Positions 10,893 to 13,387 of a DNA stretch of 64,000 nucleotides are shown piece by piece. The translations under genes were made by a program, and so were the position numbers. The stretch covers positions 121,520,001 through 121,584,000 of the forward strand of contig OX597820.1 of assembly GCA_951406725.2 (NCBI GenBank). The letters are read 5' to 3'. The notes under the pieces are model-generated. The model was not told the DNA's origin and made no database searches. It worked only from the letters and a program-made list of their open reading frames with translations. Each line of letters starts with the position of its first letter. Position 1 is the stretch's first letter. Origin of the DNA: Octopus vulgaris (Eukaryota).

Positions 10893-12106
10893 ATTATTTT
10901 TGTTGAAAAGTAACTTCCCTAATTAATTCTTCACATTTGCTCAGATGATGATACAGCAAATAATTAATAGAATACTTATTTCAAATGAATTTTTAAAAAA
11001 ACTACAATGTTTACAAAACCGGAAAAAGAGGGATGATTACGTGGATTCGATTGAGATTGAAAACTTTCAGCTAAAAGAGAAATATGCAAAACTCATAAAA
11101 CAATGATGCTTTAAAAGATGGATAACCCCTGGAGCCCAAAACAGAAACTCCTCAGATCTAAAATTTCACTAATAACCAATAGCACTTAGAATATTACCCA
11201 TTTGTAATCTCTGGTTTATCATTCTTACTACATTTCCGTTTCTTGCATCGAGCAATTTATGACAAAATATTGTCCTTATTGAAACCAAGCTTACAAACAT
11301 GTAGCGTGCTCTGGTGTTTCAGTATTTTAAGAGAGATGATCCTTTCGAAATAAACCTTTGCTGTATTAGGTGTTTGCGTTTGGAATCGGAGACGAACATT
11401 CTTGAACTAATTATCTTTGAAATCCCTCCCAACTTCGCCTGAGCAAACATTTACATCAGTTCAAATGCGGTTCGAGGCATATTTGATTTGTACGAAGGCC
11501 ATAGTCATTGTTCATTGGCTGTTGAAAATATTCCTCGTTTTAGACAATAGCTGTTGGCATTCACCAAAAGTCCTTTCAAGGCGCCCTCTAGCGGAAACGG
11601 TAAACATATTTCTTCCTTCTTGATTATTGTTGTATCACTGCTTTCGTAGTAGGCCTATCATAATGCTTTACTCCACCCAACGATGGCGTCACGCGTGATC
11701 AGCTCATATTTTGATACGGATACGCCATAATTAAATCAATGTTTCCAAAATCATTTCTCAGTTGTCTCCCTTGCGATACGCGGTGCTGATGATAGCCAAA
11801 ACGCGAGAAATACATTCATCTTCCCGCCGAAACAAGACACCTCCAGGCGACTGTTGGTGTTTTTCAATATATATTGCTTAAAGTAAGAAATGTTCTCAAC
11901 AGTGAATAGTAGTGGAAACGACCTTTCCAAGTCCATTATCTCCCCAAACACCCATAACACTGTTCCCGAGCGCCTCATAGAAAATTTCAACTTTACCTTT
12001 CACAGTTACCTAGTGACCCCACTCCCTATCTCCCTCTTATTTCTTCTCCTTCCTTCCTTCTCTCAACACGTCAATAATCTACAGTTATCTGCAGGTATAT
12101 ATATTA

Positions 12107-12886
12107 AGGCGGCGAGGTGGCAGAAACGTTACCACGCCGGGCGAAATGCTTAGCGGTATTTCGTCTGCGTTACGTTGTGAGTTCAAATTCCGCCGAGGTC
12201 GACTTTGCCTTTCATCCTTTCGGGGTCGATAAATTAAGTACCAGTTACGCACTGGGGTCGATGTAATCGACTTAATACCCATGTCTGTCCTTGTTTGTCC
12301 CCTCTGGGTTTAGCCCCTTGTGGGTAGTAAAGAAATAGGTATTTCGTCTGCGTTACGTTGTGAGTTCAAATTCCGCCGAAGTCGACTTTGCCTCTCATCC
12401 TTTCGAGGTCGATAAATTAAGTACCAGTTACGCACTGGGGTCGATGAATTCGACTTAATACCTATGTCTGTCCTTGTTTGTCCTCTCTGTGTTTAGCCCC
12501 TTGTGGGTAATAAAGAAATAGGTATTTCGTCTGCGTTACGTTGTGAGTTCAAATTCCGCCGAAGTCGACTTTGCCTCTCATCCTTTCGGGGTCGATAAAT
12601 TAAGTACCAGTTACGCACTGGGGTCGATGTAATCGACTTAATACCTATGTCTGTCCTTGTTTGTCCTCTCTGTGTTTAGCCCCTTGTGGGTAATAAAGAA
12701 ATAGGTATTTCGTCTGCGTTACGTTGTGAGTTCAAATTCCGCCGAAGTCGACTTTGCCTCTCATCCTTTCGGGGTCGATAAATTAAGTACCAGTTACGCA
12801 CTGGGGTCGATGTAATCGACTTAATACCTATGTCTGTCCTTGTTTGTCCCCTCTGTGTTTAGCCCCCTGGGGGTAATAAAGAAATA
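12107..12886 (+). mobile_element. tRNA-derived SINE with Meta-like core: one head plus four tandem 183-bp units
   Basis: Units start at 12155, 12338, 12521, 12704; B box GAGTTCAAATTCC; core GCCTTTCATCCTTTCGGGGTCGATAAA; TSD AGGTATATATATTA at 12093-12106 and 12886-12899. Confidence 0.92.
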
Positions 12887-13387
12887 GGTATATATATTAC
12901 CATTACGTTTTGTACACATAACTACAATCTTCAGTTTATCAACCTCTATTTCAATTTCACCGTTGTTTCCTTTACTTGTATCGTTTCATATTTTAATTCT
13001 TATTTAATTTTTTTTATTGCTATTATATTTCTGATCGATATGAAAATTAATAACCTCACCATTTCCCCCCAAATATTCAAAAATTTTTCTGAGCGATTCC
13101 TTCCTAAAACAATAACCAGAAATGATCTTCTCACAGCCTACATTACACGCTTTCTTCTTTCAAACGATCGTCACGTTTCGAGTAGATAAACACCCCCAAA
13201 CATCATCACCTTTACTGCTGGGGAGCAACGGATTTTGACCTCTGGCTATGCTGCAAGAAGAAAACGAAGACTGAGTAGCCATCACTTTGTACCATCTTTT
13301 CCTATTCTGATTTACATGTATATCTAACTATCCATCAATCAAACAATCTCTTTGCCTATCCATTTAACTACACATACACACATGCAC

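Follow-up and report, generated by a model that had tools for sequence, protein, structure and literature searches.

Structure of the focal SINE array

The analysed window, a 64,000-bp stretch of contig OX597820.1 of Octopus vulgaris (genome of 2.8 Gb, microsatellite-rich), contains an array of a short interspersed element (SINE) that consists of one head followed by four units, each of exactly 183 bp, within one target-site duplication (TSD). The tetramer described in a first-pass annotation of the window was thus confirmed, with the two 14-bp TSD copies being identical at 14/14 positions and the first base of the TSD being common to the tail end. In the numbering used here the head comprises positions 1-47, the core positions 48-165 and the long tail positions 166-230. 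The four units differed by 3-9 bases, with 6-9 differences between unit 1 and the rest and 3-6 among units 2-4. The first run of four Ts downstream of the head lies at 12908..12911, so that Pol III, if active here, would be expected to transcribe the four units and the TSD without stopping. Internal runs of four Ts were also absent from 42 of 65 full elements. The features of the array and of other copies in the window are given in Table 1.

Table 1. Features of the focal array and of other SINE copies (positions within the window)
Feature	Position	Strand	Remarks
5' TSD copy, 14 bp	12093..12106	+	one A, then GGTAT as at unit position 48
SINE head, positions 1-47	12108..12154	+	A-box-like segment, 5' strand of stem-loop, 4-nt loop
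Predicted 12-bp stem, 4-nt loop	12139..12166	+	3' strand begins at position 48, the re-entry point
Unit 1	12155..12337	+	118-bp core (B-box-like segment) and 65-bp LINE-like long tail
Unit 2, headless	12338..12520	+	two locus-private variants in common with units 3 and 4
Unit 3, headless	12521..12703	+	
Unit 4, headless	12704..12886	+	3 tail bases unlike those of units 2 and 3
3' TSD copy	12886..12899	+	
First four-T run downstream of head	12908..12911	+	
Independent dimer, junction 26307	26077..26488	+	12-bp TSD of its own; C at own position 48, G at junction
Independent dimer, junction 63390	63211..63618	-	two rare variants common to both cores
Older dimer, variant junction near 52850	52673..53085	-	TA in place of GG
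Long-tail monomer	36167..36396	-	17-bp TSD begins GGTATT
Long-tail monomer with internal deletion	35476..35671	-	3' flank begins GGTATT
Long-tail copy without most of head	39523..39678	-	3' flank begins GGTAT

The head was predicted to form a stem-loop in which 12139-12150 pairs with 12155-12166 around a 4-nt loop (z -2.5), and positions 43 and 48 covaried, with T43/G48 in 103 heads and G43/C48 in 27. Both results agree with the earlier proposal that re-entry occurs on the 3' side of a stem-loop. A second hairpin (GAAATA-GG-TATTTC), supposedly rebuilt by the junction, was missing from the predicted fold (z +0.29). Position 48 falls between what we take to be A-box-like and B-box-like segments, judged by eye against the consensus. 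The 183-bp unit folded no better than shuffled sequences (z 0.2), and the same was true of the whole SINE. The head region is not tRNA-sized and ARAGORN detected no tRNA genes. A search of 12000-13000 against Rfam, which minimal hammerheads outside the Rfam models would escape, returned no matches at E<=10.

The element is a SINE in that it is a short, dispersed, high-copy repeat with variable TSDs and has a 3' tail in common with a LINE; a portion of it is also tandemly repeated inside one TSD, as in SINE-derived satellites and elements of the TSD-(SINE)n-TSD form. A 30-mer marking the focal subfamily occurred 11,767 times in the genome. As regards a possible relationship to the CORE, Meta and Deu superfamilies or to octopus OK, OR1 and OR2, two motifs of the SINE core had no match in the searched part of the MetaSINE supplements. 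The last 28 bases of the tail matched a two-ORF LINE family with a zf-RVT domain and an ORF2 of 1132 aa and the first ~35 bases matched another LINE family, with no single family matching the whole tail. Many families of L1/Tx1-type (a label given by resemblance, the tree having contained no reference Tx1 proteins) carry a tail of this kind, and several of them have their own fixed targets and tandem arrays.

The dimers with junctions at 26307, 63390 and near 52850 had been reported to use the same entry point as the focal array. This was found to be so for all three, the first having its own 12-bp TSD and the last differing in the first two bases of the junction. Other repeats in the window include a 147-bp minisatellite at 49798-50549 (5.1 copies, 94% matches) and a short interstitial telomere-like (CCCTAA)n repeat at 62753-62786.

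Junctions and target sites across the genome

A junction 20-mer had 39,269 exact occurrences in the genome whilst the reversed control had none. As the genome itself holds the junction, junction reads in RNA could not prove the existence of a circle. Inspection of 167 tail-to-SINE junctions placed 151 exactly at position 48 and 4 at this position after a 6-base repeat of the tail; the others entered the head at positions 15-18 (9 junctions) or were off by 1-4 bases (3 junctions). Since 70 loci had been selected by an exact junction match, the unbiased figures are those of the random tiles, in which 30 of 36 junctions were at position 48, 1 followed a tail repeat, 4 were in the head and 1 was off. 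The junction, divergence, TSD and array comparisons excluded 9 overlapping duplicates and 20 LINE loci. The claim of one fixed junction therefore stands as regards the dominance of position 48 and falls as regards its uniqueness, with 9/167 junctions entering the head at 15-18. The junction base was G in 79 of 83 arrays, of which only 45 had G at their own post-head position 48, and C was never found at the junction of the 23 arrays having C at their own position 48. Among loci not picked by their junction, GG opened 38 of 43 junctions, and the 6 C48 arrays likewise never had C there.

The abundance of chains was estimated from 864 kb of sequence (the window and 80 random tiles of 10 kb), where 48 long-tail elements, some of them cut by tile edges, had one core in 24 cases, two in 17, three in 6 and four in 1. 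Multimers accounted for 24/48 copies in the random tiles, corresponding by extrapolation to ~80,000 chains genome-wide, and repeat annotation is affected to this extent. The longest array seen had at least six units. Among contigs from eight sequencing runs, none spanned the focal array. Contigs of two runs (X17 and X20; organisms C and D) carried the SINE and the joint between the tail and head position 15, a weak indication from contigs that the junctions may be older than the divergence from these organisms.

Target preferences were examined in the flanks of terminal tails. For 61 tails of the T218 type, the flank began with G (45), G (41), T (52), A (52), T (42) and T (35) and was random from position 7 onward. 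The TSD start of these tails (i.e. GGTATT) is the sequence of SINE positions 48-53. For 28 tails of the C218/A220 type, the flank began with A in 20 cases. The ratio of GG-start to A-start flanks at terminal ends was 2:19 for C218/A220 tails and 22:2 for the other tails (p=1.6e-8). Of the 7 typed junctions in the head, at which the head sequence is AGAAA, 5 were also from C218/A220 tails. Each tail variant hence joins the SINE where the SINE matches the usual TSD start of that variant. In most GG-start TSDs the upstream copy started right at the GG with a variable base before it. As the target letters follow the tail variant, the first letters of the target are probably chosen by pairing of the primer with read-through bases at the 3' end of the RNA; a separate helper enzyme for each tail variant is a possible alternative. 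For SART1Bm, an added target triplet is reported to make accurate priming more efficient (PMC7265360).

Among long-tail arrays the whole chain was surrounded by one TSD in 18/30 cases and among heterodimers in 10/22, as compared to 1-3% of shuffled pairs. TSD mismatch levels were 0.06 for heterodimers, 0.03-0.045 for long-tail and 0.083 for short-tail elements, differences that were not significant in an underpowered comparison, and TSD age does not separate the models considered below. Two monomers (L381 and L365) had TSDs beginning CGTAT, with L381 having C at its own position 48. Inverted pairs, with a SINE in or beside antisense SINE copies, were present at four loci (L027, L030, L085 and L021); as the head stem is near-palindromic, a comparable target may exist on the antisense strand.

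Origin of the array units

Among 137 elements with their own head, full-length copies nested at position 48 of an older SINE, in which the old head was retained and a TSD was present, were found cleanly at three loci (L037, L024 and L091) and unclearly at a fourth (L166). The residents of the three nested copies were 20-28% diverged. By comparison, divergence was <12% at 57 of the 80 intact sites sampled in the random tiles (p=0.02, small n), and among 72 seamless last cores just 4 reached 12% (p=0.0005, small n). This small sample fits a single process that gives a nested insertion where the resident has diverged too far for annealing and a seamless one where it is similar. At a further locus (L183), positions 48-61 (14 bp) were duplicated around one base, which looks like an aborted insertion.

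In 51 dimers, from which further overlapping loci had been left out, the last unit was a long-tail unit in 26 and a short-tail or tail-less core in 25. The statement that only the long-tail subfamily forms multimers was therefore correct for the upstream donors, all long-tail, and incorrect for the last unit. Last units spanned several subfamilies, two different short tails among them, and had scattered private changes. Last short-tail cores were more diverged than first cores (0.079 versus 0.043; n=38 arrays, p=2.6e-6), mostly by scattered G>A and C>T changes, whereas long-tail-only arrays exhibited no difference between last and first cores (0.044 versus 0.041; n=42, p=0.55). In pure dimers, first and last tail haplotypes differed in 12/12 cases with a concordance of 56/96 as compared to 61 on permutation, and rare tail variants were common to both units in 0/29 cases. 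One pair of first-tail and last-tail haplotypes recurred in 3 of 12 typed dimers. The cores of pure dimers were more alike than expected by chance (61/89 diagnostic sites versus 49 on permutation, p=0.0045; 4/65 rare core variants shared versus 0.7 expected), and at least one rare core variant was common to both units in 8/51 dimers (e.g. L374 and L175). The private variants of unit 1 of L374 were repeated to position ~120, beyond which the last unit consisted of old short-tail SINE sequence. Position 62 of the last core was donor-type in 10 of 28 heterodimers as compared to 1 of 18 short-tail monomers (p=0.03), indicating that priming did not always occur at position 48. Heterodimer heads were also donor-type, with G43 in 7/26 as compared to 0/26 for short-tail monomers (p=0.01) and a divergence of 0.066 as compared to 0.112. 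Together, the related cores of pure dimers, L374, and the donor-type heads and position 62 point either to donors extending past the junction with overwriting of the head or to template switching. Low divergence at positions 48-62 of last units was set aside as a signal since 70 loci had been chosen by an exact junction.

Longer arrays had a different pattern of relatedness. In arrays of at least three units, a distance of <3% separated later neighbours in 52% of 23 pairs; the corresponding figure was 6% for unit 1-2 pairs (n=49) and 0 for pairs drawn from different arrays (n=3000). Several longer arrays repeated the tail of the first unit with the core of the last, the pattern of a duplicated segment spanning the junction. 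A 30-mer of the unit 2-4 variants had 14 genomic matches, 3 in the focal array and 11 in unrelated single units. As these variants occurred in no sister array, the tetramer state of the focal array is most likely local, in line with an earlier caveat that growth past the dimer could be local. All four focal units belong to one subfamily and the TSD starts with GGTAT, so that the first doubling may also have been local, via the GGTAT repeat between the TSD and position 48. At another locus (L150), a tetramer lay within a longer duplicated block including flank and part of an old SINE, i.e. a DNA-level duplication.

The best reading of these data is self-targeted insertion resolved by homology, together with local duplication, which we regard as probable rather than secure. 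A SINE with an L1/Tx1-type tail would insert at sites starting with GGTA(T), and new copies would land at position 48 of older SINE copies because this position lies in the SINE's own preferred landing sequence. The new DNA would anneal to the matching front end of the resident, producing one head and a seamless extra 183-bp unit, with longer chains growing by local duplication. Tails of the T218 type would be directed to GG or position 48 and C218/A220 tails to A-start sites or head position ~15. The donor RNA would often itself be a chain transcript and the new strand would presumably overwrite the old head. Self-targeted insertion, raised earlier as an alternative, gains support from the identity of the TSD motif with positions 48-53, the nested copies and the older last units. 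Against it stand the near-complete overwriting of old heads that has to be assumed, the absence of an older last core in long-tail-only arrays, the relatedness of pure-dimer cores, the donor-type position 62 of some last cores and the lack of a LINE 3' end at position 48 among the 187 rows inspected. The 8/51 dimers with a rare core variant in common could be re-copies of one template.

Template switching is an unlikely but substantial competitor. Reverse transcription would start on one SINE RNA, stall near the stem-loop (~48-100) and continue on a long-tail RNA from its tail or second unit, with the chimera being inserted whole at a new site. The wholly donor-type heads and first units, the frequently chimeric last cores just past the junction and the single TSD around whole chains (18/30 and 10/22) are as expected of such a process, and a cDNA reaching position 48 would end in the letters of the preferred genomic primer. 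Many old, decayed short-tail loci would nevertheless have to supply RNA templates, inspection by eye revealed no heterodimer that lacked a head yet had a clear TSD, and the restriction of nested insertions to diverged residents, despite 71% of intact sites being young, is not accounted for. Improbable, in our view, is a junction that arose once or a few times and was inherited through dimeric or multimeric masters, read through and copied whole or from an internal tail to give monomers with GGTA flanks. The lack of internal four-T runs in 42/65 full elements, the haplotype pair recurring in 3/12 typed dimers and the donor-type sequence beyond the junction, which fits chain transcripts as donors, would suit such masters; the several subfamilies and scattered private changes of last units, the twofold gap in divergence between first and last units of one array and the lack of a sister copy of the focal array would not.

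Circular or rolling RNA had been suggested as the source of the multimers and finds no support as the main route. Copying round a 183-nt circle, or a self-jump from position 48 to the 3' end of the same RNA, would explain the exact unit length, entry at the predicted loop edge and the rare core variants common to units in 8/51 dimers (e.g. L374 and L175), but is rendered very improbable by the tails of pure dimers (different in 12/12, with rare variants shared in 0/29), by the failure of C48 to be copied to the junction (0/23 arrays; 0/6 in loci not picked by junction), by the short-tail or tail-less last core in 25/51 dimers and by last units of heterodimers that are twice as diverged. The unit also lacked an Rfam match at E<=10 and any fold exceeding that of shuffles (z 0.2). 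Least probable is duplication of a monomer at the DNA level alone, through slippage between the GGTAT at position 48 and that at the TSD start. Such slippage fits the focal locus, with its single subfamily and GGTAT-start TSD, and explains later expansion, but predicts identical units and GG-start TSDs, whereas most dimers are unlike and many TSDs have other starts; heterodimers exclude it as a general route and leave it possible locus by locus.

Self-targeted insertion can be extended, more tentatively and with less than even confidence, to an RNA-guided self-homing SINE. Read-through bases of the tail would pick the site, the guide would be inherited via the new TSD, guides would differ by tail variant and two of them would point into the SINE's own head. 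The family would thereby convert its own copies and those of older relatives to chains, overwriting their promoters, with a minority arising by re-copying of one RNA. If true, a non-coding SINE steers its own target choice via heritable read-through bases with its own copies as landing pads, a route exists from dispersed SINE to satellite, a young subfamily could take over the promoters of older subfamilies, and a natural test is available of RNA-DNA pairing versus endonuclease specificity in LINE insertion.

Comparable systems and LINE relatives

Comparisons were made with the accessible parts of the papers cited here. Chains in which a headed SINE is followed by headless units in one TSD are already known from the blood clam Scapharca broughtonii, also a mollusc, where units are cut at the same head position and recombination between TSDs has been proposed for the TSD-(SINE)n-TSD multimers (PMC11481361). 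The first and inner units of the clam lack the tail end whereas upstream units in octopus are all full-tailed; arrays contain ~3% of clam copies as compared to 24/48 random-tile copies in octopus; and the octopus junction, unlike that of the clam, is the insertion motif (PMC11481361). Crocodilian SINEU-3/Tx1-Mar resembles the octopus system in having a Tx1-linked SINE with a target within a repeat and tandem copies formed by sequential insertion (PMC4494074). The target of SINEU-3 is, however, a Mariner and its tandem copies are separated by TSDs, whereas the octopus target is the SINE's own head and the copies are mostly seamless (PMC4494074). Drosophila R1 is similar in its fixed bottom-strand site, 14-bp TSD, re-insertion arrays and precise 5' junctions, the latter being produced in melanogaster-type R1 by annealing of transcripts to upstream target DNA; unlike the octopus SINE, R1 is autonomous, targets rDNA and has a TSD between units (PMC2718515).

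SINE-derived satellites, i.e. tandem repeats of part of a SINE, are already known from squamates, where they are near concerted evolution and were begun by unequal recombination or repeated insertion; the octopus arrays differ in being short with a fixed junction (PMC10702118). Metazoan non-LTR retrozymes likewise form short head-to-tail multimers inside TSDs, and have hammerheads and a proposed copying from circles, whereas the octopus SINE has no ribozyme detected, a putative Pol III-type head, a LINE tail and units of mixed origin (PMC7761336). The octopus SINE is not assigned to the retrozymes: Rfam returned no hammerhead over 12000-13000 and the comparison of units speaks against their origin from one circle as the rule. 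A literature search, the scope of which was openly available main texts, found no description of octopus SINE chains, and none is given in the accessible parts of PMC13282606, PMC4758252, PMC4824008 and PMC7265360.

SINEU-3 and the Tx1-Mar LINE have a common target (PMC4494074). A LINE with position 48 as its target was searched for using DNA queries including the LINE-like tail, Pfam zf-RVT and endonuclease domains and a protein search; none of 187 rows, overlaps included, had a LINE 3' end at position 48 among the best 40-150 of up to 29,028 candidates per search, and no LINE sharing the SINE's target was thus found. The LINE family with the closest hairpin had varied targets. (TATC)n repeats are the insertion site of a related family having RVT_1 and zf-RVT domains. 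Within the window, a 5'-truncated L1/Tx1-type LINE with a SINE-related tail (31605-32494, + strand) lies in a (TCTA)n microsatellite, and such repeats follow almost every one of the 20 best genomic matches to its family. An older L1/Tx1-type fragment (27720-28420, - strand) has a tail that breaks into the SINE head near position 11; the same break occurs at L342, whilst most relatives of the fragment end in (ATT)n or (ATC)n. Elsewhere in the genome, full-length two-ORF LINEs are arranged head-to-tail ~5.4 kb apart and separated by a short fixed target sequence (L215-L217; 73040001-73070000 of contig C2). Young L1/Tx1-type families with an intact ORF2 of 1125-1148 aa (L265-L284, L230, L232 and L234) each have their own fixed downstream target, some in tandem. 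At one further locus (L130; 8701673-8705045 of contig C31), a 400-bp segment within a LINE copy is tandemly triplicated close to the 3' end.
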